A DNA stretch of 64,000 bases, from positions 134,168,001 through 134,232,000 of the forward strand of contig OZ296650.1 in the NCBI GenBank assembly GCA_965655095.1, read 5' to 3'. Positions 8,289-35,500 of the stretch are shown piece by piece; the first letter of the stretch is position 1, and every line of letters starts with the position of its first letter. The notes below the pieces were generated by a model. It was not told the origin of the DNA, ran no database searches, and saw only the letters and a program-made list of their open reading frames with translations. Source of the DNA: Haplodiscus bocki. Taxonomy: Eukaryota. The translations under genes and the position numbers were made by a program.

Positions 8289-9036
8289 TAGGGTAACAAC
8301 TACCAGTGGAGGCTTTAGCGTATGTAAATTAGAAGAAAGTGTTTTAATTTCTTGAAGTCTTCACATAAGTATAATTATTATGATAGCGACAGCAAAAACC
8401 GTCTCGTTGGATTTAAATTTCCCATAGTTTGAAACATTTTTAGGAAATATATGGGAAAATCGTACAAAATGTATCGCCCATTTCGCTGTGAGTTGTTTAT
8501 GTTTTCCTTGCATGTAAAAAAAACTGTCTGAAGCTACTGCTACCAGTTTTGATTGTGCTCCAGCGATTACAATTGTATTTTTTGTTGCAGTATTTGAAAA
8601 AAACTTTGGTGAAAGAAAATAGTAAACCATATGAGAAAACTTCGTTGTCATCAGAAGCAGTTGATTGTGAGTGGTAAACTAATGTAAATTTTTACTCCAA
8701 ACTCGTAAAACTTCTAATGAAACAGAAAGTTGTTCGAAATGATAATTTTGTCAGATTGAGAAGTGAAAAACTTCAATAATATAATAATTCGAAGTACCAA
8801 TTTTGCATTACTTTATAACCGGAAGAGAATATGGTAATCAATTATTACACTAAATAACCGATTTGTATTGAGAACACAACTACGTATTCACAAAGATGCC
8901 GCTCAGTTTAAAGTAAAGAAAAATATGAGAAGAGTTCTAACAACCAACTAGTTGAAATCTCTTTTCAACCAATAATGTCCTCCAGTTACAACTACAAGAA
9001 ACTCAACAACAGGATTTTCCGAAATTTCACTGGAAA

Positions 9037-11678: not shown

Positions 11679-12361
11679 TGTCCTGGAAAGCTCCTCCTTG
11701 TGTTAGTAATGAACCAAAAAAAGTTCGATTTCTAATCAAAGAAAAGAAGTTAATGAAATAGAAGATGCGTTTAGTAAACTTCAGGGCCCAGAAAACTGTG
11801 AAATGACAGAAGTTTTTATTACAAACACTTTGCAACTTTCACAACTGTTCTCCATTTAAGTATGAACAACTCAAATTTGTTGAAAAAACATTCCTTGGAA
11901 AAATAATTTTTTTATCATTTAACGTGCAACCACTAGTGCATTCAATCCCAACCAAAAACGATTGGACGCCTCTTCAATCCTCTATCGCCTTCATAAGGAA
12001 CTAGCAGTTTAAACAACATTCAATTGAAGTTTTTAATCGAGAATGATCAAAAGGCTATGGATAAAAAGTGTTTCTGATGTAATATACATACTGGCAATTC
12101 AAATAAAAAACAGTAAATGAATAATGGACAGAATGGTTTTCAAAGCTGAGAGAAGATAATAGGTTGCCGTGCAACCAAAGAAAACAATAGGTTTGCGGAA
12201 GTTTTTTGGAACTGCAAACATTTTGAAGAAATCAGCACGAAGTACACAATAAATACGAAGCGGATGGAAACTTTTCAAGAAAGGTTGCTGTGCAACCAAA
12301 AATTGACACCTATCAACAGAGTTAACATTCAGTGAAGAAGAAACGTTGACATTGATTGAGT

Positions 12362-15300
12362 TCAGTTTGTTCCGCCATATACAGACGTTTTCACAAGGCA
12401 TTCGCACCGCAACGACCCCTCTACGTTAGTACAACGATACAAATCAATTAACACGTCGCATTCGCTCAGATAGTCAGCAAGTTTCAGTTGCACAACGTTT
12501 CTTTTTCTGCGAGACATCGCTTTCTGCCAGGCCACTTCGAATGAAGACAAAGAATTTCCGGTTACATCAGCGAAGCCATGCACATAAGCAATTACTGTCC
12601 AGGGACGACGAGGTATGGGCTTTGTAAACTCACTTCCGCGCCCGGAATTGTGTTCATGAACACGCCGACGAAGATTTTTGCAGCGACCGACGTAAAACAA
12701 ATGAGGCAACTTCAAAGTCCTCAGCAAATAGCAGAAACTAAACGAAGTGTTAGGTATTTCGCTAAACCGCAAAGGAAACGGGCTTAATGTTTCTACAGAG
12801 CTCAGATTGCTTCTCATATCAGTGTAACTGTCCAGTAGGCTATTGATGAAAGGAAACGGATGGTTTTCCTTGAATAAAGTGTTGTCAATGCTTCTCATCG
12901 TGGCTAATCTGTCGCCCACGAAAGTAATATGGCTGAGATCTCTGACACGACTAAGGAGGACGTACAGTTGTTCTTTGACCCAAAACTTGAACTTTCGGGA
13001 ATCGGTTATTTCAGTTGCAATCATCGGGACAGTATCACCCATCACTTTGTGAACAGTAGACGCCACGTACATTTTTAAAGGAAACTGCCATCGCCGGCAA
13101 ACTGTGGAGGCGTTCAGCTTGAACAGGACACCCATTTGTCTCCTCAGTTTAACTTCTTGCCAATTCAATGAACTAACATTTGTAACTAGAGTAGATCTGA
13201 AACCTGGAGGATAGTGCCGCAGTATGTGTCAAAACTTTTTACAAAGCAAAGTTGTCCTTGCTGCAAATTTTCAGCTGGCAAATTACGGTTTAAGCGAAGC
13301 ACGGCACCTTCATGGACAAATAGTTGCTGGGGCTCCGTGCAAACACGGTTCAAGAAAAGAGAAGCTGTCACGTTAGCTGGAACCCAATTTTGAGTTCCAG
13401 AGGGAGTCATTTCGTCAACGGCAATGAAAGTTGTGTTCGAAACATTGCCACTACTTCGCACAGCCTCTATTCGTTCGTCAATTGCCTCCCGTTCAGCTAA
13501 CTGAGTGCTAAAAACTCGTAAACAATACATGGGAACTTCAGACCATGACCTCACAAAATTACAGTTCTGCTCAATTATTGTTAACACTTCATTTCGGATA
13601 GTTTCAGTGGACGGATACTGGGCAATTAGGTCGAGGATTCTTTGTCCGGTTATGTTGATCATTCGCACATACGATTTTAGGTGATAAAAAGTGAAACACG
13701 TCAACACGGTGTTACTGCGGAGTAAGAAAGTACCGGAAGGAGGTGGTAACTGACGGAAATCTCCACTACAAAACCAAAAATTTCCCACCAAAAGGAAGAC
13801 TGTTCCCACAAACACATTGCAATACAGAATCCATGGAAGACCACAATTCGGCTGAAACCATTGACACCTCTTCTATGAAAATAACATGAACTCTTTGTAA
13901 ATACTTGCATTTAACTGGATCCCTGCACAATTTTTCTAGGGGGCATATGAAGTCATCTGGGAAACCGATGCATTATCATTTACGGGAAACGGAATGAGAG
14001 CATTTATGTGCAAACCACCAAAAATTGAAGCCCTCTCAGCCGCCAGACTGGTAACCACACAATTGAAACCTTTTGCTAGGGTTTCAGCTATACAGTGAAT
14101 CAGAACATGACTTTTACCGGTTCCAGGTGGCCCAACAATCACTTGGTGCTTCACAAAAAATGAGGTACTCTTGTGAAATGTATTCATTGTCTCCAGAATC
14201 AACTGCAGTATTCGACGTTGATCGGACACAGATTCAATTGTCTGAAGTGTTTCTTGGTATTTTTGAGGCTGCCAATTCAAAGGACTGCTCAGAGAAGCCG
14301 ACATGAATTCATTGAAGGAAGGGAAAGTTGTCGGGCTTTTCTCCATTAAGGCTGCTACTAAGTTACTCTTCACTCTATTGCTTTCTTCTAAAACATGTTC
14401 CTCTGCTTTCTGGAAAATTGAGGACTCCAGAACAAGGGGTAAATCTTTGCAAAAGGTTAGAAGATTGTTTTGTGTAGCTTCCTTTAAACAGTGATACGCC
14501 GTTCCAACATGCCTGCCAAGAGGGTTGACGAACCGGGGTAAAACCGCAGTTGCTCCATCACAAAACGCTTAGTCAATGAAACAACTTCCTCATCGGTGGC
14601 TTCTTCAGTTGACGAAATCAGACCACTGTAGACGAATGCAGACTTCAAGGACAAATGGGAAAACAAACCAATTTCAGTGCAATACTCACCAAAGGAGAGA
14701 AGATAATGATTGAGAAAGTTTGATGTACTTTTAGGCACAATTGTTGATAAAACAACTTGCACTAGTGGAAAACTCATACTCTCGTTTATGAAGTGGGACT
14801 TGTTTGGTTTTCGTAAACATTCAAGTGCTTCCCTTGCTTGCCGGACATAATGACTGTTGTTGCTTTGGAAATTCTCACAGTAACTGATTAACGCTGTTAA
14901 ATAATGCATGTTGACTGTAACTTTGAAACCAAAACCGTCAATCCAAAACGAACAGAAAATATCTGGTTTTATCATCGTTTCAATGGACGCAGTTGGTGAC
15001 ACCTTGGTGCGGACGAACCAAGTGAAATATTTCTCTACAGTACGCAGGAACAACATTTCTGGAGGTCGTGCAGAAAAAACTGTTATTTTGTCATAAGACA
15101 CAGAACTTTTCTCAGCATCAACAATGGTCCATTCTTGTGTCTGTGTGAAAAGTCTATGAGAAGGGAGCTCAAGGTTTTTTCGCAGAAGAACTTGCTGACC
15201 ATACAAAGGACCCTGCTTAGCAGGACGTATCATCCGTTCTTTCACAATACCAGCTCTTTTCTCTTTGGGAGTTGTCACTACGTGAATGAAGTGAATGTTT

Positions 15301-18300
15301 GAACAAACATAAGGAAACTTCAGAAGCCAACACGCCGACTCTGTCAAGCTGATAGCCCTTCCAGTCAAAGTTTTACGCTTCTGGCAAGAGCTTTGGTTCT
15401 TTGACCAGCGAACTCCGCTTATTTTTTCGTTTGACTGATCCTCAACGTTGTAGCCAAAAGTTGCATCAGTGGAACTACTGTAAAGGTTTACGGTACTTCG
15501 TTCTTCTATTCCCGCAGCGTACTTGGCCAAATACCTTGCACTCATATAGACGTCACAAATCTGTAAATTTGTACTTGACCGAACCAAAGCGAAAATTAGG
15601 GCGTTTGTTGGCGAAAAATGGGTACCTTTCTCTGACGGATAATGATGTTTACCACCACGTAGCTCATCAATGAGAAACAACTGACCGGTCACGGAATCTT
15701 CAAACGCAACATTCAGTTTTCGTAGAATATCCCATGTCTCTTTGGATAAATTTTTCTCGACTTCCTTGTAGGAAAAAGCGACACTGCTTGGATAAGCTGG
15801 AACTCTGCAAATTGACTTTTGTAATCTGTTCGATTTCTTGTGGCAACGCATTTTTGCTTTCCTGCAATTATGACTTTGGTATTTTTGAAACAAGATCTGC
15901 AAATCTTCTTTCTCCTCCGGTGAAAATTTTTCCGATCCCACTTCCGCGTTCAGATTACCTAAGAACGTTGGTAAGCTACAACAAACTCTCGATCGAACTT
16001 TTTCGCTGAAAGCATTTTCTGAAGTCCAGATAAGAGCATGGATATGTGGGAAGGCACTTGTTTTATCTTGAAATTCATAACGATACCACAACTTCCGTAC
16101 TCTGCCTAACGGACGTTCCGTAGAAGTTTCGATGTACTTCATCACGAGTCGGGAACTGCGTTCCCACGCTCGTAGCATTGTTATCATTTCAGCTTGAACC
16201 GCAGAATTTCGAATCTCCGAGCTGGTTATTGTTTCAGGGTATTTCTCTTCCAAAGCTTGAAAAAACTTCCGTACTCCAGGATGAGTAGACTGACTGCAAG
16301 TGTAAGTGAAAAAATAGGTTGCAGGTTCATCCTTCAATGCACACTAAGTTCATTGACATTTTTTCTTGAATCACTCTGATCGAAGTGCATAGCTCCTTCT
16401 TTGACGCATTGGCCACTTACGTTTTTGTCAGAATCTTGTCCCCAGCCTCTGTTCAACACCAATCTAGTGTCTTTTCCGCGCAAATCTAAACTAAAAACCG
16501 AATCAAAAGCGTACTGTATGTATCTGGGATCGGATGCCGTTAACAGAGATCCATCTTTGACTCTTGCACGCAGCATATCATCTAAGCTTGCAAAACCAAA
16601 TTTGGCATTGTTATTCTTGTTGTTAAACAACGAAGCAGGTATAGCACCTGCGTAACTGCCGTCCTCATTCTGTTTCCAAAAAATAGTTGGGAACATCATC
16701 GCCTCTGGTTGAATTAGTGGTACCGAATTACACGGTTTGGTAGCTGTAACAATCTCCAACACTCTTTTGTGTCTTGCAGTCACGTAAATGGGAGACCCTC
16801 TACTACGTTTCAGAAGGCCACACTGACCATTCAAAAGAATATGCAGAGGTAAATTGAAATTGGTGTCCGTCATTACAGGTTCCCTGACATAGCTTGGTTC
16901 CAGTGCAGCATCCGTTACCTCCGGTAATGTCAATTCCGAAGAGTCTGTGTGTTCATTCAACAATCCTGCATCCATTAGGAAATCACTTTGAGAAGTTGAC
17001 GATGAAGAGACAGAGTTGCTCCACACACCTCCATCTGAAAGATTTTCCTCGCTGACACTCCTGCCGTAGCTACTGTCACCACTGATGCTCCTTGCAGCTT
17101 TGTCTCCATCGTTCTCAGACTTCGGCTCAGATTGGTTGTAACAGACAGAAGCGATGTCTTCTGAAGACGATGTGAACGGCAACTTATCTGTTCGCCTCAC
17201 ATTCGGAACATCCGCAAGATTGTCTTGCTGCATTACGTCTTTCCGACAAAGACAAGAGGTGCACTCGTTAACTGGACATCGGAGAAACGAAACCCGACTA
17301 CATTCACAGTAATAACCGCTTCCAGGAAAATCTCTGGTTAAAGGCAGCAAATGTTCCTCACAAAAAAACTTCCCTTGTCCAGTGAGTGTTTGGAAATAAT
17401 CAAGTTTCAATTGTTTGATGGTTTGCGTTTGCACAAGGTAATAAATTGCGACATCCCAATGACCTTTATTGTGATGGTCGACGGCCTCCAACGGTGGAAG
17501 GTTAACACGACTAGCAAACGGTCTCTTGTTCTCGTAAAGCCAAAATTTATCAAAAGAACCTCCATGCCTCACAAGCGATTTCCTGCTAATGTTATCTGTC
17601 AACGTCGAAATGCACCTCAACTCGTAGTCTCTATCGTCAACAGTTATGGTTATGGGTGGGCAACTTTTATTGCGCAAATTTTTTCGTGCTGGGTTTGTAA
17701 CAATAACAGTTTGGGTCGAGCTTTGAAGTGAACTCTCAAAAGCAACAACCATTTTCGACTTGTCCTTCAAGGGACAATGTGAAACTTCATCTAAAGCTGA
17801 TGTCAAAGTTTCCGAAAACATTACCGCGGGAAACTCACTGTGTGAATTGACTTCAAAAATTTTGGAAATTCGGCCGTTAAATTGACGCTACCAGTCCAAT
17901 CCTTCCGACCAGAAAAAACAACAGGTTCCGAAAATTTCAAAATGGGAACAAGATTGGGAGTGGACATACAAGCTGACGACAATTGATCGCAAAGAGGTGG
18001 AGAGATGCAAAACGCTGTCTGTAAAAGAAACATCAGTTCAGAAGTTCTACAACTGATCTTAGGAGGAAGGGCGCCAAAGAAATTGTTACCATGGGCGAAA
18101 GCCAAGGATTTGAATTTAGCGCAAAGAGAGTTCTCCAGAGACACACCCAATGATGACATCAGAGATAAAGAGGACTTCAAAGAGACACTTGTTGTGGAGA
18201 GCAAAGATTGCACAGCTAATCTCTCGTTGGGACGAAACAAAGTCTGCTGTCGAATTTCTTCAGATATTTCCTTGGAATCAACCAAGTTTTGTAGTAACAC

Positions 18301-20525
18301 TTGTAGATCTGGTCTGAAAAAAGAACACTGCGCCTCCGCTTTAACCAACAACTCCGACGCGCGCATCCAATTTCGCTTGGACGTTAAGGATATACTGCTC
18401 ATTCCAGAATAGTTACCAACAGCCTTGAGCAATTGGTATGTATGGCTCGAATAATTAGCCTTGACGTTTTTTATGAGGCGCAAAGTTGGCATAATTAAAG
18501 CTAACCTGTCTTCACAAGGCACGCTCAATCTTCCCAGTTGGGGATGTGTAGGTGGATGTAAAAACTGCAAATTTGAACCATTGTGGTGATCAAGACAAGT
18601 GCCAATAACAGGACCCTTGGAACAGTGAACGAAAGCGAAAGCGGAAACTTTGAATTTCTCCAGCACATTGAAGGGGGTGCTCCAATCAGATCTTATTCCA
18701 CGAAAATGAGAGTTAAATGACGACTTAAAGGACACGAAACTCGGCATCAGTCCATTGATGAGATGATGAAACGGAATGAAGCCAGTTTCCTCAACGAAAG
18801 TGAAACAACCGAAGGGATATCGACATTTGGGATAGGTTTCTTGATCCAGTGCTTTTTCCAACCGTTCAGAAGATCCCGAATTAACATGAGCATCGAAAAT
18901 TGACTTTCTCTGTGTTGTGTCGGACACCAACGAAGGAACATTTTGTTCACGTACGGCTGGATGTAGATGATTGAAACGATGCTTCCAACTTTGCCTGATC
19001 TCCGAAGGAATCATTGCATACAGAATTTTTACCTCATCATCCAAAATTGAAGTGTCATGAATGAGGCTACTTAAAACGGTGGGCCAAGCGTCTTTCCAAG
19101 CGACTCTGCTGCCCTGCAAATACCGTAGACAAACTTGGCAAACTTTTTGACCAACACGACATTTGCGCCCAAATTTTTTCCTCCGCCCGCTAACATTTTC
19201 CAAAACAAAGAAAAACAATTCGTAATACTTCGTCGATCTTCGCAAACAGTTGGCACATTCTAGGTGCCCAACAACAATCTGTGAATCACTATGAGAAGTG
19301 GTGTCGGAAAAAGCAACCGCTTCACAAGAGTCTACTGTGACTTCTGCTGAATCATTGTGTTGTGGTGAATTCTGCCGAAAAGTGGTCGTTGCAACAAATG
19401 AGGGAATGAAGTTAGATAACGCTGGCAGCGGTAAAGTTTCGAAATGTGCAGACGAGCTCCTGTTGTGTTTTTCCACTTCATGATTACTCAAATTTTGCCT
19501 TTTTGCAAAACTTGAAATTACGTCGAAATGATTTCCTGAAATACTGTGACGAACAAAAATCGACGGAATATCCAAAGCATTTCGGTCACCTTGATACTCA
19601 TAAACAAACCACGAAGAGGTCATACTGTGATAAACCACAACATCAACTCGAGCCAGCTGTGCAAATGTGAAAAGTTCAACGCACGTTCCAAATACACCAT
19701 CCGTACCCATGCGAGACACTTCCAAATAACTGATGACATTTCGACAGGAAATTGCTCTGACACCTGGCCCTCCAGGAACATAAGCTTCCAAAAATTGGCT
19801 TTGTAAGCCAACACTGGGTAAATGGTAGCAAATAGCAGCCCGTATGAAAGCATGGTTTGTTGCATGCGAACCGATAGCTACAGAAAGTGCAAAAAAAGGC
19901 AATTTCCGTCTCCTGGAACATCAACACAACTTCCAGGAACCAAATCTGACAATGGATGCTCATCAATCAAACTCGTTGGGAGAAACAAACCTTGAAAACT
20001 GACTCCCAGCTTATTGCAAACATGCTGTAGACTATGCTGACTTCCAATGATTTTTCTACCCTTCGAAATTACCGAATACAAATTTGCTTCCAACAATGGA
20101 TCAGCATCTGATGACAGCGGAGTTAATGTAACATTCGAAATATTCGCCAATTTTGGACTTTTCAAACACTTGCATTCCCCTTTCCCTTTGAAACAACCGC
20201 ACCACACACACTGCTCAGTCACATTGTGACGTCGCCTCTTCGTACCTGGGCCAGGATTCAATTCCAATCCTCCACGAAAAAGAGCTAACACAATAAGACG
20301 TCTAGTTAAGCTTGAATCGTTGCCACCACAAAATTGAAGCTGTCCTTGAACGCAACACGCCGATTGACCATTCCGGTAATTTCGTTTCTCAATGCAGAAA
20401 CCACCGAATAACGACACCGTGTAATTATGTGTCTGAGACAACGTTTGCAAACTTTTTTCACTTGAGAAAATTGATGTTGAACACCAAAAAAACAAAAGCA
20501 TTGTTAAACAACCGTAAAAATCCAT
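12362..20525 (-). pseudogene. Frameshifted OTU-Rep-PIF1 helicase-GIY-YIG polyprotein of element B
   Basis: Seven ORF pieces colinear with the intact C protein: PGDGNC (OTU), YFFTYTC, WYRYEFQDKTSAFPHIH, RYLAKY, GPPGTGKS, FIEEVSM (alternative frame near 13870), GDFRQLPP, QLYVLLSRV, CYLL...FYVG...RRVHEHN...RRPW...FEVAWQ. Confidence 0.9.
20247..20270 (-). other. 2A-like ribosome-skipping motif GLELNPG/P
   Basis: LIVLALFRGGLELNPGP; the ExNPGP core is in the same position as in element A. Confidence 0.7.
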
Positions 20526-21009
20526 TGAAATCTACAAAATAATCCAATTGGAAAAGGGATTAGAACAACATATCCAATGATCATTCGCAAATCGGAATAA
20601 GCAATAGCGCTTCTGGGCTGCAAAATCAATACAAAACTTTACACATTTAAATGAACAATGTTAGTAATGTTTTTGAGAAAACAAAGTTTACTAGCATGTT
20701 CATCATATGTCACGTCACAGCATTCAGCATCCGCGACTTAAATACACATCAGAAAGCCGAGAACATTGCAATGGCATTCGCATGCTACCTTCAAAACCTA
20801 CTTTTGATCACACTTTGTAGAAAAAATAAAATTTTGTCAACACGCACAACATGTTTGCATAAGTTTTTAATCCACTAACTTTATAAATGTGTCCGATCCA
20901 AAAAGCTTTCAAAAAAGTCGAGAAAAACTTTTTAACAGTCTGTAGACCGTTGTTTAGTATCTTTTAACTAAAAATACAAAAAAAAAATCAGCTAAAATTT
21001 TTTTTTGGA

Positions 21010-21618
21010 AATGTCGTCATGACCGTCATTTTTTCGTTTTAATCGTCATTTTTTCGTCATTCTAAACCGAAAAATTTTGTCGTCGAGACAAGTTCTTGCA
21101 ATTGGTAGAGGTTGTTCCGCTGTCCGGCAGCCCTAGATGTCAATGCTGATATTTCGACAAAGGAGAAATGACGGATTGATCATTTTTTTGAAATTTCTAC
21201 TGCTTTCATCCGTCATATCTCCACTTTTATGACGAGTTGGCGGAAAATTTTTTGCATGCGGATAACTCACAGTCAACATGCTTCACACACACAAAGCTAG
21301 CCCAATGCGTATGGTTAGTTGTGGAGATTGGGCCAAAAAACTTCGGTAAGGAGCCAAAAATGACGATCATTCCGTCATAACTCCTCCCCCAATGAATCAA
21401 TCATGACGGGACCTACATCAAAATTCTTATATTTGAAAGTTATGGCCACATACAAAGTTTGACCAAAATCTAATGGTTGGAACGCGAGATCGCCTTATTT
21501 AGCCCCCCCCACGGACGGATACTATTTGCTACGCACTATATTTTAAGCTCGGCGAACGGGTCCCTTCCCGGCCTCGCAGATTGTTAAAGGGGTATCACCC
21601 TGACCCCCCAGTGGAGGC
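21010..21618 (+). repeat. Type 1 terminal module of element B
   Basis: Nearly identical by eye to the right ~600 bp of the following mini-units, especially ~24200-24779. Confidence 0.9.
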
Positions 21619-24600
21619 TAGGGTACCAATTACCAGAGGAGGCTTAACTGTAGGTACATATTTGCGTGAATAAAAACTGTTCAAGTTAAAGAAATTTTGA
21701 TCTATGGGTAATGACGTTTACATTTTTGCTATTGAGTCTCCTACTGTTTTGTGTTCCACTCAGCAAAGGAGACAACTGCACCCCAAATGCTTTTATTGTG
21801 GTCCGAGCCCGTTGTTCATCCGATTAGCTACTCGCTAATCTCCGGAACAACGGGAAAAATCAATGTTCAGAAGAAATTCCGTTTTTGAAGAAAGCTGTGG
21901 TTCACAAAAAAAATCATCTCCATTGAGTTATAAAACTGGTTAGAAAACCAGAAAACACTTGTTTACAGCGACTGCATTCATTTTTGTTGTATTCTACTTG
22001 CTAAAACACACTTTTTGGGGAAGTTTCTTTTTTTTTTGAAAAACTCGTCATAACCGTCATTTTTTTGTCATAAAAGTCATTTTTTCGTCATAACCGTCAT
22101 TTTTTCCGTCATTCTGAGCGAAAAAAAATTGTCGTCGAGAAAAATTCTTACAATCGGTGTGAATTGTTCCGCTGTCCGGCCGCCCCAGATGTCAATGTTG
22201 ATACTTCGAAAAAGGAGAAATGACGGAATGATCAATTTTTTTTCAAATTTTCTATCAGTTTCATCCGTCATATCTCCACTTTTATGACGAGTTGGCGGAA
22301 AATTTTTTGCATGCTCATAATCCACACCCGAAATGCTTAACACACAAAAAGCTAGCCCAATGCGTATGGTTACTTGTGGAGATTGGGCCAAAAAACTTCG
22401 GTAAGGGGCCAAAAATGACGATCATTCCGTCATAACTCCTCCCCCAATGAATCAATCATGACGGGACCTAAATCAAAATTCTAAGAATTAAAAGTTATGG
22501 CCACATGCAAAGTTTGAACAAAATCTATTGGTTGGAACGCGAGATCGCCCTATTTAGCCCCCCCCCTACGGACGGATACTATTTGCTACGCACTATATTT
22601 TAAGCTCGGCGAACGGGTCCCTTCCCGGCCTCGCAGATTGTTAGTGGGGTACCACCCTGACCACCCAGTGGAGGCGAGGGTACCAATTACCAGAGGAGGC
22701 CTAACTGTAGGTAGACATTTCCTTGAATACATTTTGTTCAAGTTAAATTATTTTTTGATCTACGAGTATTGATGTCTACATGTTTGCTATTGAGTCTTCT
22801 ACTGTTTTGTGTTCCCCTCAGCAAAGAAAATTACATGACTCCAAATGTTATTATGGTGGTCTGAGCCCGTTGTTCATCCGATTAGCTACTCGCTAATCTC
22901 CGGAACAACGGGAAAAATCAATGTTTAAAAGAAATTCCGTTTTTGAAAAAAGCTGTGGTTCACAAAAAAAATTCATCTCCATTGAGTTATAAAACTGGTT
23001 AGAAAACCAAAAAACACTTATTTACAGCGACTGCAAATATTTTTGTTGTATTTTACTTGCTAAAACACACTTTTTGGGGAAGTTTCATTTTTTTGAAAAA
23101 CTCGTCATAACCTTCATTTTTTTGTCATAAAAGTCATTTTTTCGTCATAACCGTCATTTTTTTGGTCATTCTGAACTAAAAATTTTTGTCATGGAGAAAA
23201 ATTCTTTCAATTGGTGTAAGTTGTTGCGCTGTCGGGCAGCGCTAGAGGTCAATGTTGAAACTTCGACAAAGGAGAAATGACGGAATGATCATTTTTTTCA
23301 AATTTTCCATCAATTTCATCCGTCATATCTCCACTTCTATGACCAGTTGGCAGAACATTTTTTGCATGCGGATAACCCACACTCGAAATGCTTCACACAC
23401 AAAAAGCTAGCCCAATGCATGTGGTTACTTGTGGAGATTGGGCCAAAAAACTTCGGTAAGGGGCCAAAAATGACGATCATTCCGTCATAACTCCTCCCCC
23501 AATGAATCAATCATGACGGGACCTACATCAAAATTCTTAGAATTAAAAGTTATGGCCACATACAAAGTTTGAACAAAATCTAATGGTTGGAACGCGAGAT
23601 CGCCTTATTTAGCCCCCCCTACGGACGGATACTATTTGCTACGCACTATATTTTAAGCTCGGCGAACGGGTCCCTTCCCGGCCTCGCAGATTGTTAGTGG
23701 GGTATCACCCTGACCACCCAGTGGAGGCTAGGGTACCAATTACCAGAGGAGGCTTAACTGTAGGTACATATTTGCGTGAATAAAAACTGTTCAAGTTAAA
23801 GAAATTGTTCTATGGGTAATGACGTTTACATTTTTGCTATTGAGTCTCCTACTGTTTTGTGTTCCACTCAGCAAAGGAGACCACTGCACCCCAATTGCTT
23901 TTCTTGTGGTCCGAGCCCGTTGTGCTTCCGATCAGCCACCCGCTGACCTCCCGAACAACGGGAAATTTCAATGTTTAAAAGAAATTCCGTTTTTGAAAAA
24001 AGCTGTTTTTCACAAAAAGAAACCTTTTCCACTGAGTTATAAAAGTGGTTAGAAAATTGAGAAACCTTTCTTTACATTGACTGTAACTTTTTTATTGTAT
24101 TCTACACGCTGAAACGTAAATTTTGATGAATTTTCTTTTTTTTTTGAAAATTTCGTCATAACCGTCATTTATTTCGTTATAACGGTCATTTATTCGTCAT
24201 AACCGTCATTTTTTCCGTCATTCTAAACAGAAAATTTTTGTCGTCGAGACAAGTTCTTGCAATTGGTAGAGGTTGTTCCGCTGTCCGGCAGCCCTAGATG
24301 TCAATGCTGATATTTCGACAAAGGAGAAATGACGGATTGATCATTTTTTTGAAATTTCTACTGCTTTCATCCGTCATATCTCCACTTTTATGACGAGTTG
24401 GCGGAAAATTTTTTGCATGCGGATAACTCACAGTCAACATGCTTCACACACACAAAGCTAGCCCAATGCGTATGGTTAGTTGTGGAGATTGGGCCAAAAA
24501 ACTTCGGTAAGGAGCCAAAAATGACGATCATTCCGTCATAACTCCTCCCCCAATGAATCAATCATGACGGGACCTACATCAAAATTCTTAGAATTAAAAG

Positions 24601-27600
24601 TTATGGCCACATACAAAGTTTGACCAAAATCTAATGGTTGGAACGCGAGATCGCCTTATTTAGCCCCCCCTACGGACGGATACTATTTGCTACGCACTAT
24701 ATTTTAAGCTCGGCGAACGGGTCCCTTCCCGGCCTCGCAGATTGTTAGTGGGGTATCACCCTGACCACCCAGTGGAGGCTAGGGTACCAATTACCAGAGG
24801 AGGCTTAACTGTAGGTACATATTTGCGTGAATAAAAACTGTTCAAGTTAAAGAAATTTTGATCTATGGGTAATGACGTTTACATTTTTGCTATTGAGTCT
24901 CCTACTGTTTTGTGTTCCACTCAGCAAAGGAGACCACTGCACCCCAATTGCTTTTCTTGTGGTCCGAGCCCGTTGTGCTTCCGATCAGCCACCCGCTGAC
25001 CTCCCGAACAACGGGAAATTTCAATGTTTAAAAGAAATTCCGTTTTTGAAAAAAGCTGTTTTTCACAAAAAGAAACCTTTTCCACTGAGTTATAAAAGTG
25101 GTTAGAAAATTGAGAAACCTTTCTTTACATTGACTGTAACTTTTTTATTGTATTCTACACGCTGAAACGTAAATTTTGATGAATTTTCTTTTTTTTGAAA
25201 ATTTCGTCATAACCGTCATTTTTTTCGTTATAACGGTCATTTATTCGTCATAACCGTCATTTTTTCCGTCATTCTAAACAGAAAATTTTTGTCGTCGAGA
25301 CAAGTTCTTGCAATTGGTAGAAGTTGTTCCGCTGTCCGGCAGCCCTAGATGTCAATGCTGATATTTCGACAAAGGAGAAATGACGGATTGATCATTTTTT
25401 TGAAATTTCTACTGCTTTCATCCGTCATATCTCCACTTTTATGACGAGTTGGCGGAAAATTTTTTGCATGCGGATAACTCACAGTCAACATGCTTCATAC
25501 ACACAAAGCTAGCCCAATGCGTATGGTTAGTTGTGGAGATTGGGCCAAAAAACTTCGGTAAGGAGCCAAAAATGACGATCATTCCGTCATAACTCCTCCC
25601 CCAATGAATCAATCATGACGGGACCTACATCAAAATTCTTAGAATTAAAAGTTATGGCCACATACAAAGTTTGACCAAAATCTAATGGTTGGAACGCGAG
25701 ATCGCCTTATTTAGCCCCCCCACGGACGGATACTATTTGCTACGCACTATATTTTAAGCTCGGCGAACGGGTCCCTTCCCGGCCTCGCAGATTGTTAGTG
25801 GGGTACCACCCTGACCACCCAGCGGAGGCTAGGGTACCAATTACCAGAGGAGGCTTAACTGTAGGTACATATTTCCGTGAGTACAAACTGTTCAACTGAA
25901 CGAAATATTTTGATCTTTGAGTAAGGACGTTTACTTTTTTGCTATTGAGTCTTCTACTGTTTTGTGTTCCCCTCAGCAAAGAAGATTACATGACTCCAAA
26001 TGTTTTCATTGTGGTCTGAGCCCGTTGTTCATCCGATTAGCTACTCGCTAGTCTCCGGAACAACGGGAAAAATCAAGGTTTAAAAGAAATTCCGTTTTTG
26101 AAAAAAGCTGTGGTTCAGAAAAAAAATCATCTCCATTGAGTTATAAAACTGGTTAGAAAACCAAAAAACACTTCTTTACAGCGACTGTAATTATTTTTGT
26201 TGTTTTCTACTTGCTAAAACACAACTTTTGGGGAAGTTTCATTTTTTTGAAAAACTCGTCATAACCGTCATTTTTTTGTCATAAAAGTCATTTTTTCGTC
26301 ATAACCGTCATTTTTTCCGTCATTCTGAACAGAAAATTTCTGTCGTCGAGAAAAATTGTTCCAATTGATGTAAGTTGTTTCGCTGTCCGGCAGCCCTAGA
26401 TGTCAATGTTGACACTTCGAAAAAGGAGAAATGACGGAATGACCATTTCATTCAAATTTTCTATCAGTTTCACCCGTCATATCTCCACTTCTATGACGAG
26501 TTGGCCGAAAATTTTTTGCATGCGGATAACCCACTGTCAACATGCTTCACACACACAAAGTTGGCTACATGCGTATGGTTACTTGTGGAGATTGGGCCAA
26601 AAAACTTCGGAAAGGGGCCAAAAATGACGATCATTCCGTCATAACTCCTCCCCCAATGAATCAATCATGACGGGACCTACATCAAAAATCTTAGAATTAA
26701 AAGTTATGGCCACATGCAAAGTTTGAACAAAATCTAATGGTTGGAACGCGAGATCGCCCTATTTAGCCCCCCCTACGGACGGATACTATTTGCTACGCAC
26801 TATATTTTAAGCTCGGCGAACGGGTCCCTTCCCGGCCTCGCAGATTGTTAGTGGGGTATCACCCTGACCACCCAGTGGAGGCGAGGGTACCAATTACCAG
26901 AGGAGGCCTAACTGTAGGTAGAAATTTCCTTGAATACAATTTGTTCAAGTTAAATTATTTTTTGATCTATGAGTATTGATGTCTACATGTTTGCTATTGA
27001 GTCTTCTACTGTTTTGTGTTCCCCTCAGCAAAGAAAATTACATGACTCCAAATGTTATTATGGTGGTCTGAGCCCGTTGTTCATCCGATTAGCTACTCGC
27101 TAATCTCCGGAACAACGGGAAAAATCAATGTTTAAAAGAAATTCCGCTTTTGAAAAAAGCTGTGGTTCACAAAAAAAATTCATCTCCATTGAGTTATAAA
27201 ACTGGTTAGAAAACCAAAAAACACTTATTTACAGCGACTGCAAATATTTTTGTTGTATTTTACTTGCTAAAACACACTTTTTGGGGAAGTTTCATTTTTT
27301 TGAAAAACTCGTCATAACCTTCATTTTTTTGTCATAAAAGTCATTTTTTCGTCATAACCGTCATTTTTTTGGTCATTCTGAACTAAAAATTTTTGTCATG
27401 GAGAAAAATTCTTTCAATTGGTGTAAGTTGTTGCGCTGTCGGGCAGCGCTAGAGGTCAATGTTGAAACTTCGACAAAGGAGAAATGACGGAATGATCATT
27501 TTTTTCAAATTTTCCATCAATTTCATCCGTCATATCTCCACTTCTATGACGAGTTGGCAGAAAATTTTTTTCATGCGGATAACCCACACTCGAAATGCTT

Positions 27601-27935
27601 CACACACAAAAAGCTAGCCCAATGCGTATGGTTACTTGTGGAGATTGGGCCAAAAAACTTCGGTAAGGGGCCAAAAATGACGATCATTCCGTCATAACTC
27701 CTCCCCCAATGAATCAATCATGACGGGACCTACATCAAAATTCTTAGAATTAAAAGTTATGGCCACATACAAAGTTTGAACAAAATCTAATGGTTGGAAC
27801 GCGAGATCGCCTTATTTAGCCCCCCCTACGGACGGATACTATTTGCTACGCACTATATTTTAAGCTCGGCGAACGGGTCCCTTCCCGGCCTCGCAGATTG
27901 TTAGTGGGGTATCACCCTGACCACCCAGTGGAGGC
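21619..27935 (+). repeat. Six tandem type 1 non-autonomous mini-units (1050-1057 bp each)
   Basis: Cores start at 21602, 22659, 23712, 24763, 25813, 26866 and 27919, giving spacings of 1057, 1053, 1051, 1050, 1053 and 1053. Unit 3 resembles unit 4 and unit 2 resembles unit 6. Confidence 0.93.
27919..27935 (+). other. 17-bp junction core GACCACCCAG(T/C)GGAGGC (representative of 12 copies)
   Basis: Copies start at 8272, 21602 (one A>C change), 22659, 23712, 24763, 25813, 26866, 27919, 28960, 45995, 47043 and 48089. The unit type switches at this core. Confidence 0.9.
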
Positions 27936-28976
27936 ACCGGTGAAAATCACCAGGTGGCGGTCACTGGAGAAGCACCTCTGAAATAGGATAGTTTACTGAT
28001 AGTCTTTTCTTCGAACACAGTAATGAGTTTTGCAAATGCCTGTTTAATACATTGAAATTGAGCCTGTGAAATCTTCATTGAAATCGACAAGACATCGAGG
28101 ACGAAGCTTACAAAAAGTTCGGCCCCGTTGTTTCTCCGTGTCGCTTCGCTAATCTACGAAACAACGGGGCGGGGCAAATAACAATTTGAATTTCGATTTT
28201 TTTTTCAATTTTGGGCCAAATTATGATTGTTTTTCCAGAAAATTTCAATACCTCAACCCACAAAAAAGGTTCAAATTCAAAACAACTATGCAGTAAGAAA
28301 AATTTGGGGGAAAAATGGACAAAAAAATTGCCAGATATGAATTCTACAATCAAAACTGAGGTTTTGGAAATTTTTAATTTTTTTTGAAAATTTCGTCATA
28401 ACCGTCATTTCTTTCGGCAAAGTGGCCGAAAATTTTTCATCTTCGGAAAATTGCCTTTCAAGTTATGGAGTCGATTTCATACTGGAGCCACTCCAGAGTG
28501 CAAACTATGCACTTCAATGTGGGAGCTATGACGAAATGGTCGATTTTCGGCATTTTTTTCCAAATTTCATCCGTCATATCTCCACACCTATGACGAGTTG
28601 GTAGAAAATTTTTTGCATGCGTGTAGCCCTTAGTTATTCTGCTTCACACGAAAAGTTTCGGCCAAATGCATGTGGTTACTTGCAGGGCTGTCGCTAAGAA
28701 ACTGAAAAATGAGGCCAAAAAACAGAATCATCCCGTCATAACTCCCCTACCATTTTTGCTAGAATGATTTAACTTGCACCATTAATCTTAGAATTGAAAG
28801 TTATGTCCGCATGCAAAGTTTGATCCAAATCGTATGGGTGGGAGCTGAGATCGCTATTTTCCTATACCGTGTTTGCATAGAGTTATTTCTTATATTTTAA
28901 CGCGAGGCAAAGGGGCCCCTCCCCCGCCTCGCCAGGACCTATGAGGGGCGCAAACCCGTGACCACCCAGTGGAGGC
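27936..28976 (+). repeat. One type 2 non-autonomous mini-unit (1041 bp)
   Basis: Lies between cores 27919 and 28960 and is highly similar to 46012-47059 and 47060-48105. Confidence 0.92.
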
Positions 28977-31900
28977 GACGGTGAAAATTACCAGAAGGCG
29001 TGAGGTTTGAATCGGTGTTTCTTTCGTGTTCAGATTTATTTTCTGCGACAAACGGGCGTAGTCCTGTCATTGTGCGTCAGTCAACGTGAAGCCGTGAAGC
29101 AGTATGTTGTCAATTTTTGTGACGAAGACGAAAAATGCCTTTTGGGTGGCAAATATTGACAAAATTATCGTCGTCAATCCTTATTTCAGATTGTTGTTCT
29201 AACTTCTCTGTCTCCTGCATGAGAGGTAACTTTGTTTTCCTGTAGACGCACTGGATTTGCCGATGCAGTTTGGGAAAGGTGCAGTTAGGCGGTGAATACG
29301 AAGGGGCCGGAAGTATGCTGAGCAATGAACAGTTGTTATCTTGGAACAAAATATGTTTTTGTTAAAATTTAAGTTTAACAGTTACTTTTTAATCTTTTCT
29401 TCAGCTACCAAAATTCTGGGTTTTTGTCCAATTCATTAGTAAAATTTATCTGTACTTAAAATATGAAAGGTGAGTTAAGTTTTGTTTTAACTCTAAGTTT
29501 TTATCCATACTTTTGCTGTTTCTTTTGGAGCTGTTCCCAGAAATTTTTTTGTCTCATTGCTGTTGTTGTTTCTTTAAACAAAGAAAAAACTTGACTGGTG
29601 TTCAATTACGCACTCCAAAGTTATGTTTGGATTCTGCCTTCGTGGAAAAAACAATAATTGTTTTGTTGTTTCTAATGTTTTCTGCAGGGATGAACTTGAC
29701 AATGCAGCTTTGCAATGGGATACTAACATTTAGTGAACAAAAATCAGGATATTGGAAGCGGGTGGTCTCCACGAACCTTAAGCGTTGTTTGAACCTCGAA
29801 AATCACGAGCAAGTTTCTCCAGTTTCTCATACCTATGAGATTCATTTTCAAGGTTTTCAATGATTGTTATAACTTACATTGGTTTTTTGAAAAATGTGTC
29901 TGATTAATATCAACCACCCATTCCGCCGCTTTCGAAAATGAATTTCTGAATAGTTTTGTTGAATGAAATTTTAATGTTCAAAAAAAAAGAGGCAACGGAA
30001 TGATGACTTGTTTTTGATCGACACCAGATGCTATTTTTTTTCCGGGCTCAGGTGGAGTTTTTTATTGGAAACGTTGCACTACGCATCTGGTAGGTAATTT
30101 ATTTTTTTGTTGTTTTGTATTTTAATGGATAACACGATTCATCACAATCATTTCTTCAATTAAGGCTTCCTGCGCTGTAGCTGCTTCTTTTTGTTTGAAT
30201 CAAGCGTTTCTTGACGGGAAAGGTCCGGTTTCCCCTTGTGTTGGCATGAAGTTTCACTAACCAATAATGTTTTTCAATCAGCACATAAGTAGAAAAGTAA
30301 AGATGGCTACTGCACGCTTCCTCGTGGCTTCATGTTTTCGCGTTAATTCGCTTTCTTCATTTGTTTACAACGTTGTCCGAGCCAATTTTCCCTAAATAAT
30401 TACGTTTTTTATTCATGGCTTCCCATTGACATGACTGTCCTGCTTTTACGGTCAACATTTTTAAGAAAAGCACCCAACCTTTTTTTTTCCGCAATAATGT
30501 CTTCCTAAAAATAATTTCCTTTTTTGAAGACTGTACTGACAATTCGAAATTTCCGATATTTTCGCGAAACTAATAAGTTTCGTTAGTCCAGATTGAGTAA
30601 CGAACGGGGCATTTCCTCAGCTATTTAATTCCATCACTTGTTCAACATTTTACCGAATTTCAGATTCGTCCTTCCCTTCTTTGACGTTTTCTTCCTGATT
30701 TTAAATTATAGAATTTCCAGAAGCAAATTATTGTTTTTTATTGTAGAGCTTATTATTTTATTCACAATGTTTTTCTAATTTTGCTAATTCCCATCCTGAT
30801 ACTCTGATCCCCCAGAGTCATTTGGAATTTTGGTGGACGGAAGGCAATTCACTTCTGCAACCTTATGCTAGTTCTCTTACGACTGTTCACATTAGCATAT
30901 GTTTCTCCGCAGACATATATAAAACATCGTTAATGTTTGTAAAGTGATTGAGTAAAAATAAAAACCTATTTCATCTTTAACTTCATAAATATCTTTTATA
31001 TGCGTAACTTTTTCTCACACGCAATGGCTGGCTTTGGCAGCCTTTTTCTGCGGAATAATATTTCCGTTAACTGCCAATTTTCTCACTTGGACTAGCCTGG
31101 TTGTTTAAAAGTCAATGCTTTCGAATCTTAAGGTCCACTTTGAGGCTCTTTCTTTCCTGCAGTGAAGATTTTATGAAATGGCTCCACTGCCAGAAATTCA
31201 AAATTTCAAATATGCTTTACTTGTAAAAGATCATCGGGAAGTGGATGTTCATCTAATTGTCAGTAGACGGAATCAAGACAATAAGAAGCCAAGGCGGGAT
31301 AGCCATATTGATCAATGACTTTAACCGATTCAATTTTTCAAGTTCAATATGCAAACTATATCACAACGATTAACTGTGTCTGAATGATGCTAGGCAGTTG
31401 GAATTGCACACAACTATGGCACTTTTTGAACATCCTTGATCCATTCTTTTTATGTTTTCATCAAGAGATTTCGTATCTGGAGCCTTGAAATTTTCCCCTC
31501 TGTTCCATCAACGTGCCTGTTCATCTATCACCGTTAACGAAAGGACATGAAATAAAACAACGAATAGAGTTTGCGGAATTTGTTACTAAGCTCTTGATTT
31601 CAAGAAGCTTTCCAACGTTGAAGTAATTTAAAAAAAATACTAAATTCATTTTTATGACGCCTAAAGACTGTCAGTAGTGGTTTACGTTGTGTATTTCAAT
31701 GAAATAGGCCGTGAATATATGATTTTGAGAATTTGTCGGAGAGAAAAGTGAATTCGACGGAGAATGATGGAAATGTAGAGCTTCCCATTGTTCCTCCCAA
31801 CTGAAACAAAATTTGTACCAACAATTATCTGTACCCCCTTATTTGTATGAAATTGTTATTTGATGCTTTTTTTAGACTGTCAAATTCTTGAGCTTTTTCG

Positions 31901-32557
31901 TATCTTAAATCTGGTCTCTTTTCGTCTTCTATACGACATTTTCTTCGAAACCTAGACTGATCTTTTCAACTTTACATCTGTTAAAACAAGCTACTTACTT
32001 CATAGATGAAACAAAGGTACTGATTTTTTTGGGCCCTTGAATATAAAGTTTTTTTACCTGCAAAAACTGAATTGAATTGATGCCTGGTTTACACCAGTGA
32101 AAAAGACTACGAACCTCTGAAAACTTTGTTGGGTCTTAATTTACCCAACTTCAGTTACTTGGTGCCATTTTTTGCAAAAAGTTTTCAAGTTCCTAAGTGT
32201 TTTGTGAAACTGAAAAATTACGTTGTGTTCGATTGAAGTCAATACAACTGCTGAGGAAGCCTTGGTTTTGCTCCTGTGCGTTCGCAAAACCAAGGCGTCT
32301 GGTTTATGAATGGTTGGAATTGAATTATGATTTTTTACAGTACTGCCTTATCTTTTTCGCGGCATCGAACCTGAAATTTAATTAGGCAGGCAACGGTTTG
32401 TAATTGAACCGTAAAAGACTTCGCTCAAACGACAATTTGATGTATTTACCTATTATACGAATTTCCCTGCTAATTCTTCAACGTGTGTTTGTATTGTAAC
32501 ATCTTGTTTTTTCATATAGTCATGATCCCACTGAATTAATGTCTGTTGTGTTTTACA

Positions 32558-35500
32558 ATGTCAAAACAAAACAACAAAGGAAACTTGAAGCGTCGTCGTT
32601 GTACTTCCTGTGGACAATTTGTTGGAGAACATCATGTGTGTGCAAAATCAATTGAGCTGGAACTTCAGGTCAACGAGCCTTTAGGAATTTTATACAAAAT
32701 TCCCGATGCATCAGTTGCTGTGTCACCTACCGCGAGAACGGAGATACACAGCTCGCTGAACACTTTGGGGTTGATGGACTTTTTAAAGCCTACAAAAACA
32801 GCTATCGGAAACGATACAGTTATCTGCTCCATGCAGCCAGTCCGGGTAACAGCAGTGCTTGGGGACGGTAATTGCCTTTTTTCTTCTCTGGCAGTTGCTC
32901 TGGGACTGTCACATGAATGTGGCCCAATCATACGTAACATTATTGTCAGCCACATGAATTTAATCAGTTTCCCCCCTAATAGCCTGCAAACATCTGTTTA
33001 CTCCGATGACTTTCCCAACCAACATCGTGTTTTGAGTTGTACTTCCGTCGATGAGTACCTCCGCGAATCTAGAATGGCAGAAAATGGTGTTTTTGGAAGC
33101 TGTGTAGAAATATATTCATTTTGCCAAATCTTCAAAGTAGATGTTTTTTTGTACCATGTTCCATTCAAATCCTGGATGATTTATGAATGTTCCTCCAACG
33201 TAAATAGAAAAGGAATTTTCATTCCACAAAACCGGAATGCAAATCACTTCGAGGTGATAACAGAGCTGGTTTCAATTGGTCCTGAAAGCTCCAGCTTATC
33301 GCAAGTTGCATCAATTAATCGCCCTCCTTCTCAATCAAGCGAAACTAATCATTGGAGTCAAGCCTTGCAGAACTGCGAAGGAACTGAAACTGAACCAGCT
33401 TCGAAAAAAAGCAAAGTCAATTCTGATTACACCTGGGAAGAGCACCCTGACCCGCTCGCATTAAGTCTCTTCGCCAATTCTGTATCTACCAAAATGAAGA
33501 AACTTTCGGCCTTGGAAACATTATCAACAAATTCAACGAACCTCCCAAAGAACGATTGTTCACAAATGCTGGAACCCCCATGTTTTGACTTTTCCCCAAC
33601 AGATAGTGTTTCAGGAAATATGCACACGAACGGCGAGTGCCCAAATTTGGGCGGATGTGACTGTTGCGCAAAATGCATGCGCCAGTCAACAGTTCTTTAC
33701 CCTTTAAAGTTGAAGAGGAAGAATAAATTTGATCTTAAAAACCGTGTGTTTGGAAACAAGCTAACGGAGCCCATTGTTGTTTTATGTAAGCTCTGTCTTC
33801 TCTATTGCACAACCGAAAGTTATGATTGGTACAATGCTTGGCCCTCTGTGTTTTTCAGCCTATTGAGTGATCAAGACATGCCAGTTAGAACCCAAATGGA
33901 TATTTTGTCTTTGTTACCTTGGGAATTGAGACAGCAGTGGATGACATCCATGCACTACTTTCCCCTGTGCGTTCAAAGATGTCTAAGTCGGAAACGGATT
34001 GCTGGGAAATGTTCCGTTGATGGGACGCTTCGTTTGCGTCGTTTCCACGAACTCATGAAAACCTTGAAGCAGACTAACATTGCTCTTGCCCTGGACAATG
34101 AACCTTATCCCAACGTCCGCTGCCCATATGGGTGCTGGTGTTTCATTGAAGAATCAGGTTGGATACCCGCAAATCACTTCATCAATCTTTTTGAAAGAAA
34201 CTTTACCTCGTTTCAGTCCTCCAGCTTCCTGCATCTAAGAGGAATTAGGTCCGACTTTTTGACACCATTTGTGTCCCTGCGCCAGTTCTTAGTAGCGACT
34301 ACAGTGCGAGTTGATGAAAAAGCGGGACTCGTGGTTCAGGCTTGCTCCAGGCACTCAAGAGGCTCCAGTGTGCAGTACTTTCATCCGCCATCACATCCTT
34401 CGCTGGTGCGAACTACAGTGAATTATGAAGAACGTCTTAGTGCCATCGCACCCACATTGTCGTTCATCTCAAGCATAAAAGCCAACTTCGCCAGTCATAC
34501 GTACCAATTGCTAAGAAGTGTTGGCTCTTACAGTGGAATGAGCACAGTCCGATTGAAGCGGAAAACGCGCTGGGATTTCACTAGTGACATTTTGTATCAT
34601 GCTGAAGGCGTCGCTTGTCATTTCAGAGAAGACATCAAAACAATGATTCGTGAGTGGGTAAGACAGGGTAAAATCCTTGATGACGTAGCTTCGGGAATGC
34701 TGGATCATGTACCGGACAAAAAGAAAGTCAACAGTTGTTTGTCACAGGCCACTTCAATAGACTTACAAACATGCCTGAACCTCACGAAAATAGTGGAAAT
34801 GAATGAAAAAGAATATCTCAACAATGTTAAGTCGTTGAGTTGTTACACTCTCGTTCATGGGAATGATGATTACGGCTGCTCTCCACCTCCTCTGGAAAAT
34901 AGAGTAAGCATAGTATCGTGGATTGTGCAGGCTGCAGTTTGTGTTTCCCCAATACTTTGTCGATCCTTAGTGAACTCATCAAAATACAGTGTGACACTTA
35001 GGCCTTTGTTCACTTTACTCAGGAAAGTGTTGCTTGGCACCGCAAGAATGAATACAGCAAAAGTTTTATGGCTTGTTAGAAAATCCGAACAAGCAGTCTC
35101 AGCTGTCATAGAACAAACTAACACTGATGACAAAACAGAGGGAACAACCGACTGTTGTTGTTTTGTAGGAGCAAGGTTTCTTTCAGAAATTTGTGACACC
35201 ATTCAACACGTTCCCTTAAACAAACGGAAGAATATCGGTTCAGCCACAACAGAGCAAGTTTCGTACAACATGACTCATGCCATTTTTACGACAGGTTCCC
35301 CAAAAAATTTGCGGAACAAGGTGAAACCACCGTTAACCCTGATTATTTCCGACAATGAATTCGAATTGATTGCAGTTGGAACGAAGGATGGAAGCAGCAA
35401 GGGAGAACCGAGGTGGTTGGTTAGACATGGAGGGAGGTTTCAGGGGTTTTGGCTCATTGAGAAAAGTAAAAAATTTGCCACAAAAACAGAAGGCTCTCCG

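Follow-up and report, generated by a model that had tools for sequence, protein, structure and literature searches.

Known eukaryotic Helitrons mostly use dinucleotide targets, and to our knowledge both the choice of target and the end signals read by Rep are known for one reconstructed element only. Tandem Helitrons have reportedly been described in plants by Xiong et al. in 2016. In IS91, the target tetranucleotide sits 5' of the nick. This target, CTTG, lies beside the IS91 origin and the terminator is cut at CTCG (PMC13181058); the 3' ends of Helraiser read CTAG, or CTTG with the hairpin deleted (PMC4778049). The window analysed here is the whole 64-kb stretch G000 C3:134,168,001-134,232,000, within a 1.5-Gb eukaryotic assembly, and it carries four coding elements (A-D) and nine non-coding units of ~1.05 kb. 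We show that an 18-nt core at 23711-23728 is the seam where one Helitron-like unit, of a group whose transposase (RepHel) combines OTU, Rep, Pif1 and GIY-YIG domains, ends and the next one starts, and that this group comprises multiple families. On balance we favour the reading that the core is the site at which Rep nicks and joins DNA, that it is rebuilt by each insertion with new copies likely landing on old junctions, and that the origin lies at the hairpin-bearing end, the minus strand being transferred.

Within the core, the junction reads CCACC^YAG (the caret marking the break) and falls at 23718/23719, with an uncertainty of one base. The core half-motif gave 20 matches where 0.9 were expected, and exact cores were found 264 times genome-wide against none in the control. 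At the 12 junctions in the window, left and right halves of differing types meet at the core. Cutting 664 kb of C3 and 400 kb of C9 at the junction motif yielded 184 units, and all junctions detected in these two arrays share one polarity. The left end predicts the right end within a unit (mutual information 2.81 of 2.95 bits, 28 pair types), whereas prediction across a junction is only partial (1.41 bits vs 0.67 after shuffling, 65 family pair types). As 103 of the units start with TAG (the other 81 with CAG, AG being demanded by the cutting pattern) and most neighbours do not begin with CAGTGG, the 18-nt core is just one form that CCACC^NAG can take. Only the last five bases of TGACCACC, with which the upstream unit terminates (23711-23718, plus strand), are shared by all families, as CCACC or, in some, CCAAC. 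A preliminary description of this region had proposed a terminator fused to an origin of HUH elements. The fusion of an end with a start of RepHel elements is borne out by host flanks, one empty site and the 184 array units. A single origin, with hairpin and iterons arranged around one nick, is not supported: the hairpin is part of the left-hand unit, mini-stem and direct repeat are parts of the right-hand one, and the two sides combine differently across families.

Flanking host DNA defines a target heptamer, (A/C)AHC^NAG. On its left side (16 flanks, after two false regex hits had been dropped), A or C is found at position -4 in 15, A at -3 in 14, H at -2 in all 16 and C at -1 in 15. For the right side, a genome-wide pattern of right ends not followed by C gave 56 matches; all 30 that were fetched continue with N-A-G, which the pattern did not demand, 11 of them into host DNA and 19 into the starts of other families. 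Searches with left ends or the core led to six more right ends, of which four fit NAG; the remaining two are a CGG and an ambiguous case. Position +1 is dictated by the downstream family but varies in host flanks, and position -2 behaves the other way round; because of this opposite variation the break is placed at CCAC^C or CCACC^. The remaining ambiguity of one base arises because 23718 is almost always C, whichever side is considered. Right ends with another base at -1 occur at chance level (26 vs 21 in the control) and no start lacking C was found in one TAG family, which leaves both placements, CCAC^C and CCACC^. A break at TGAC^CACCC could be ruled out, with 0 right ends stopping at TGAC. 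An empty site was obtained for L236, a 1,445-bp unit inserted in a tandem repeat of tRNA-like look: the neighbouring repeat unit, 95% identical to the L236 flanks, reads AAAC^AAG. At this one verified empty site a target-site duplication is absent, as in Helitron-like elements. Paralogues of L103 are 72-75% identical and none bridges the site, nor was a skipping joint present among the joints listed from four contig runs; for L096, the paralogue ends just short of the site.

Genome-wide, the end motifs matched 1,915 times against 177 in the control, corresponding to ~1,700 ends. Ends followed by a purine and AG number 26 (4 in the control), ~16 of them host-flanked; doubling this count for the other bases gives an estimate of ~30-40 host-flanked ends, or ~2%, and ~98% that abut another unit. 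The heptamer occurs ~3,600 times per Mb in the 80 kb of flanking DNA sampled, and by itself it is therefore insufficient to explain the clustering. Read on the minus strand, the ends are CTGG (23721-23718) and, in TAG families, CTAG. Canonical TC/CTRR ends had earlier been called not evident; this holds for 5'-TC, but canonical-looking CTRR ends can be read on the minus strand, if the ambiguous base is counted with the element. As for the nick that had been placed in the core, the breakpoint does lie inside it (CCAC^C^YAG, from host flanks, empty site and array units), and the nick itself is predicted at 23717-23719, either after 23717 (minus-strand CTGG^) or after 23718. A 78-bp unit consisting of the hairpin end only (L232 / L353) starts at an internal GCACC^AAG site known in a sibling family, and a right end at G000 C11:34.65 Mb (L365) repeats a short piece of its terminal sequence in tandem, directly ahead of the junction. 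GGAGGC-like text past the end of L300, considered as a neighbouring element, proved to be host coding sequence.

The upstream unit carries an end hairpin at 23661-23683 (plus strand), built from an outer GGC/GCC, a bulge, an inner CGGG/CCCG and the loop TCCCTT (23671-23676), which ends 42 nt before the junction in type 1. The type-1 hairpin had been described at this place (23661-23687), and the type-2 (GCGAGGC-N17-GCCTCGC) and type-3 (CGGG-ACCCTA-CCCG) versions likewise read as written. Its inner stem stands; for the outer stem, the aligned pair in type 1 is GGC/GCC rather than GCGA/TCGC, and the 7-bp outer stem of type 2, present here, is broken in sister copies reading GCTCGGC. Folding energy is no evidence for any single hairpin, as none folded better than dinucleotide shuffles (z -0.04, -0.58 and -0.43; 0.89 for the whole region), and support was therefore drawn from comparison. 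Over 56 distinct arm sets, aligned apart from three ends that could not be anchored, the loop N-CCC-T-H is constant and the inner GGG/CCC nearly fixed, the fourth stem pair varies between C-G, G-C, A-T and T-A, and the outer stems are family-specific (GGC/GCC, CCGC/GCGG, GGAG/CTCC, GCCA/TGGC, GGGC/GCCC, GGGCAG/CTGCCC). When arms were swapped among 12 representatives of 43 arm sets, cognate pairs folded at -6.9 vs -4.2 kcal/mol for swapped ones, a mean cost of 2.7, and 1 in 100,000 permutations was as good (p ~1e-5); for 5 of the 12 some foreign partner did equally well.

The same hairpin recurs in metagenomes. The strict motif GGG-N-CCCT-N-CCC was matched in 9 of 79 loci of relatives and never in the reversed control, and the relatives that bear it have a Rep identity of 25-32%. 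Two pairs of these loci are related, which leaves ~7 lineages across deep branches of the tree, among which 5 of 5,040 arm swaps did as well. Always antisense to RepHel, the motif lies upstream in eight cases and downstream in one (L294), where it likely marks the end of a neighbour joined to the L294 element. All six loci with enough sequence show AHC^NAG 53-59 nt beyond the loop, against a background of 5% per 21-nt window. A looser pattern was uninformative in the metagenomes (21 vs 19 in the control); L298 and L307, picked from it by energy, are excluded from the strict counts. The fixed loop, the covarying stems, the recurrence in metagenomes and the AHC^NAG spacing together make this hairpin a clade-wide end signal, and conservation of the stems in further family members is thereby confirmed for the upstream hairpin.

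The downstream unit begins with a short end signal, CAGTGGAGGC... (23719-23770, plus strand), of which 32-52 nt are common to non-coding units and their coding partners. Such sharing at the YAG end was seen in 8 of 9 pairs and not detected in one; at the hairpin end, 8 true partner pairs have 570-1,080 nt in common. The signal contains the mini-stem GGTA-CCAAT-TACC (4 bp, 23732-23744, plus strand) and, after a 14-nt spacer, a second CCAGAGGAGGC (23743-23753, plus strand) that repeats the 3' half of the junction exactly as first described. The direct repeat is the better kept of the two: of 17 end variants, 10 have a second YAG, 24-29 nt inside the end, in nearly every copy, 2 have it in part of their copies, and 5 mostly lack it. 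Both features are confined to the CAG-starting group, the mini-stem being absent from TAG- and AAG-starting families. Although the mini-stem is indeed there, it covaries at one pair only (GGTA/TACC vs GGTG/CACC), has wobbles or mismatches in the A, C and D types, and is perfect in 38 of 39 short units vs 2 of 41 long, coding-size ones. A required, covarying element can therefore be ruled out, and judging from these sequences coding copies do not appear to need the mini-stem. Together with the second YAG it is probably part of a short, family-variable terminator signal. In two short families, it forms the tip of a longer terminal hairpin (z ~ -5), seen in the type-2 (and type-4) short units at 27926-27970 and 46002-46045 and missing in their coding partners; short units may be selected for stronger end signals. 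One C9 family in the L173-L212 array has a hypervariable first 40 nt followed by a 9-bp GC hairpin.

The transposase of element C matches OTU, Rep, Pif1 and GIY-YIG domains. H255, H257, Y424, K427 and Y428, i.e. the HUH and Y-x-x-K-Y motifs, are invariant in 21 aligned sequences; the Rep match to PF14214 falls below the curated cut-off. A model of the Rep segment (mean predicted local distance difference test score 66.8) has Helraiser 7lcc as its sole PDB match at E<=0.001 (2.3e-6, 13% identity). The fused helicase is Pif1-like (PF05970, E 5e-11, and PDB Pif1 matches). For the C-terminal GIY-YIG domain (40230-40480), also found in 15 of 18 relatives scanned from the 150 listed, the closest solved structure is SLX1, a structure-specific nuclease, and the domain could process branched intermediates. 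The clade counts 414 clusters at 50% identity (E<=1e-30), and no relatives were found in viral contigs. For five lineages here, and likewise for the metagenome relatives, RepHel is encoded antisense relative to the polarity of the junctions. The C/D group, in which it runs in the sense direction, forms one clade (100/100) nested among antisense lineages in a midpoint-rooted tree of 19 rows, all members of the present group. In this clade (28967-64000), the cassette of RepHel and a second open reading frame (ORF2) is inverted between unchanged ends. Copies of element C elsewhere, on two chromosomes, are 99.3-99.8% identical; the flip therefore left mobility intact. Flips of open reading frames between fixed ends are known from Fusarium Helitrons (FoHeli3-5; PMC5148889), and their orientation is variable in Paramecium Helitrons (PMC13085455).

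In the ancestral layout, the coding strand reads host-CTNG ^ GTGG, hairpin, RepHel, CTRG ^ host-DT. In the mechanism we propose, this RepHel-coding strand, here the minus strand, would be the one transferred. At the hairpin end, the putative origin with 5'-GTGG or 5'-TT, a first nick by Rep would fall 3' of CTNG, and Pif1 would then peel the strand; a second nick would follow the element's own CTRG at the YAG end, the putative terminator, and the resulting circle would join a CTNG^DT target. Nicks, peeling, circle and strand transfer are all modelled on Helraiser (PMC4778049) and IS91 (PMC13181058). If the junction model holds, the origin is probably at the hairpin end: it is placed there because CTNG resembles the IS91 target and terminator and the Helraiser 3' ends. 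Furthermore, in the ancestral orientation RepHel is preceded by the hairpin end, partners match over 570-1,080 nt there vs at most 32-52 nt at the YAG end, and truncated units are YAG-side in three cases and hairpin-side in none. A circle joint of element C was not among the joints listed in public contigs, which cannot prove its absence.

Each insertion would leave two heptamers, one of them next to a Rep-binding end. A resident junction, at which heptamer and Rep-binding end adjoin, would for this reason be the preferred target of all families, and repeated landing on old copies would result in long mixed chains. It is on these grounds that we infer self-targeting. Mixed arrays of one polarity measure 400-570 kb; in one of 400 kb (L173-L212, G000 C9:18.62-19.02 Mb), many families intermingle over at least 121 units.

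The same junction and self-targeting are also compatible with the opposite polarity, with transfer of the plus strand, a 5' origin at YAG and a 3' terminator formed by the hairpin with CCACC, as at Helitron right ends. The Helraiser terminator requires its loop sequence and tolerates a swapped stem, as seen here (PMC4778049), the right ends of Paramecium Helitrons are covarying stem-loops ending in CCAA (PMC13085455), diversity in Helitrons is usually greater at left ends (PMC11417382), as it is at the YAG ends here, and IS91 transfers its bottom strand (PMC13181058). Yet the match of CTNG to IS91 and Helitron cut sites would then be a coincidence, the loop lies 40-59 nt from the end compared with 11 nt for the Helraiser hairpin, the origin would consist of only 32-52 conserved nt that are hypervariable in one family, and the truncations, three to none, are on the YAG side; this polarity therefore strikes us as rather unlikely. 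Alternatively, mixed arrays might arise at a real junction with no target preference, through the joining of circles or concatemers before integration, unequal crossover, or read-through copying. Read-through is known for Helraiser (PMC4778049) and IS91 (PMC13181058), 95 of 182 neighbours match each other in family, information across the junction exceeds that of shuffles, and a block of ~100 kb is duplicated. What makes this origin of the arrays quite improbable is that 65 differing family pairs join at precisely the same base, that homology between families across the junction extends over just 7-18 nt, and that the heptamer is the same at singletons and array edges. Finally, a satellite-like repeat with a GC-rich patch could give rise to such features by chance folding and without any role, a reading that would agree with the failure of single hairpins to beat shuffles and with a mini-stem of just 4 bp that is often broken. 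Covariation in 12 end types and 7 metagenome lineages, the fixed breakpoint spacing and the exact unit boundaries make it highly improbable; for the upstream hairpin chance folding is largely refuted, and for the mini-stem alone it may apply.

Several points weigh against the reading that we favour, in which the core is rebuilt by each insertion and entered from a hairpin-end origin. The nick, the circle and the steps of transposition are ones that we infer from analogy. A fixed loop on an exchangeable stem is the Helraiser terminator pattern (PMC4778049) and speaks for the opposite polarity, a universal hairpin is lacking at the YAG end, and the truncations could be explained by microhomology deletion or by insertion at cryptic sites. 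The like neighbours (95 of 182) and the repeated ~100 kb block in the C3 array imply that tandem duplication also builds arrays. Empty sites verified amount to one, L103 and L096 having given no bridging paralogue, and one singleton continues with CGG instead of NAG, with another ambiguous. The arm-swap p-values overstate independence because the representatives are related, and 70 of the 79 metagenome loci are without the strict motif, many of them short contigs that maybe do not reach the end.

Around the core, the window is filled by units that abut each other. Element A is represented by its hairpin-side portion (1-8278, minus strand; type-3 hairpin with its loop at 8233-8238), followed by element B, the partner of the type-1 units (8279-21608, minus strand), whose RepHel and ORF2 lie on the minus strand in the ancestral orientation and whose RepHel is broken in this copy. 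Then come six type-1 non-coding units, head-to-tail and each ~1.05 kb (21609-27925), a single type-2 non-coding unit (27926-28966), the 17,035-bp element C (28967-46001), a pair of type-2 non-coding units (46002-48095), and element D (48096-64000), which runs ~1 kb beyond the window, all on the plus strand. Element C encodes an intact transposase of 2,689 aa with the order OTU-Rep(HUH, Y2)-Pif1-GIY-YIG (32546-40615, plus strand) and an ORF2 of 336 aa for which the Pfam scan gave no match (43388-44398, plus strand). ORF2 (~335 aa, conserved, with a cysteine motif and no Pfam match) is also found at 9037-10035 (minus strand) and 62623-63654 (plus strand), and accompanies RepHel in the CAG-starting group; a third open reading frame of ~220 aa lies at 11034-11702 (minus strand). 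A hairpin-side region of ~590 bp (23130-23718, plus strand, its start approximate) is common to type-1 units and element B. The long conserved hairpin-side region contains CGTCATAACCGTCAT-type short repeats (23086-23185, with equivalents in each unit) and an inverted pair (23270-23298 with 23467-23495), which from their sequence are candidate Rep-binding repeats. At C3:134.148-134.197 and 134.250-134.298 Mb, one element block occurs twice, ~100 kb apart; it takes in the first half of the window and contains a fused A/A unit of 28,263 bp. A 98%-identical RepHel is present on the public contig P0001, whose 17,291 bp are near one element length (17,035 bp) and which may be a circle or a collapsed repeat.

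We found no description in the literature of the end structure or of mixed self-joined arrays, though HELIANO tables, Repbase and Dfam may hold such families unrecognised; neither is described in the available parts of PMC6431247, PMC13404089 and 10.64898/2026.09.17.752431. We tentatively raise the possibility of a third or fourth Helitron-like branch (Rep-Pif1-SLX1-like GIY-YIG), widespread and undescribed, that has an IS91-type CTNG cut and a universal hairpin at its origin, that lands on its own origin junction, and in which many families, down to 35% Rep identity, share one HUH recombination site and form arrays of hundreds of kb. If so, it would constitute a eukaryotic self-targeting integration system. 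Self-targeting, if true, would offer a route to large mixed repeat arrays, a link between Helitron and IS91 cut sites, and a sequence-specific single-strand integrase. At the least, the end signature lets annotators find a large clade (the 414 clusters) that fits the end rules of neither HLE1 nor HLE2, the breakpoint, 7-nt target and hairpin conserved across distant organisms provide small testable substrates, and the window carries an intact, recently copied transposase.

How, then, does this group relate to known systems? With Helitron1/HLE1 (Helraiser, 7lcc; PMC4778049) it shares a HUH Y2 Rep fused to a Pif1-like helicase, the lack of target duplication, a coding-strand 3' end that resembles CTRR and a loop-specific hairpin. 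By the definitions of HLE1 and HLE2 (PMC11417382, PMC4067079), it departs from the former in having no 5'-TC and a heptamer instead of AT as target: where HLE1 has 5'-TC and A^T, the ends here are YAG/AAG and CCACC on the plus strand, or GTGG and CTRG on the minus strand, with MAHC^NAG as target. CTRR, the HLE1 3' end, would correspond to minus-strand CTAG/CTGG, provided that the ambiguous base is part of the element. Instead of a hairpin 10-12 nt from the 3' end, the conserved loop lies 40-55 nt from the other end and the CTRG end has no universal hairpin. Furthermore, the hairpin is 40-59 nt inside the end upstream of RepHel, the protein of ~2,400-2,800 aa has a C-terminal GIY-YIG, and the ends nearly always abut other units. 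HLE2/Helentrons, taken together with proto-Helentrons and HLE2-reverse (PMC11417382, PMC4067079, PMC5148889), likewise have an OTU upstream of Rep and a flippable orientation of open reading frames; one Sphagnum HLE2 has a GIY-YIG, and the proto-Helentron, with 5'-TT, 3'-CTAG and a 5' stem-loop, resembles five of six metagenome ends on the coding strand. The group differs from HLE2 in having no T^T or AT target and no DUF6570 or AP endonuclease Pfam match (14 window open reading frames and 18 relatives scanned). Subterminal inverted repeats, 11-18 nt in HLE2, were not found: in all 21 unit types the best cognate match was 6-9 nt with one mismatch, the level of non-cognate pairs.

The Helitrons of Paramecium, a third clade (PMC13085455), show very long transposase reading frames, absolute polarity, variable reading-frame orientation, a covarying end stem-loop, non-coding derivatives and a specific target resembling their own end (CCAA in C4A2 repeats), all as here. 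They target host telomeric repeats, however, whereas the target we propose is the element's own junction, and 'GIY' is absent from the main text of that source. IS91 (PMC13181058) shares the Y2 HUH transposase and the lack of duplication. Its tetranucleotides CTTG and CTCG may be compared with CTNG here: read on the minus strand, host DNA shows CTNG and the element ends in CTRG or CTTG, the nick strand being predicted. IS91 is, however, bacterial and short, lacks helicase, OTU and GIY-YIG, and mixed arrays are not described in the portion of PMC13181058 consulted. Replitrons (PMC10288648), too, are HUH transposons of eukaryotes and carry short direct repeats close to their ends, but they use a Y1 Rep without helicase, compared with the Y2 RepHel here, where the direct repeat lies within one end. 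As such, the group works like a Helitron, fails the end rules of HLE1 and the rules of HLE2, and is not a Replitron.

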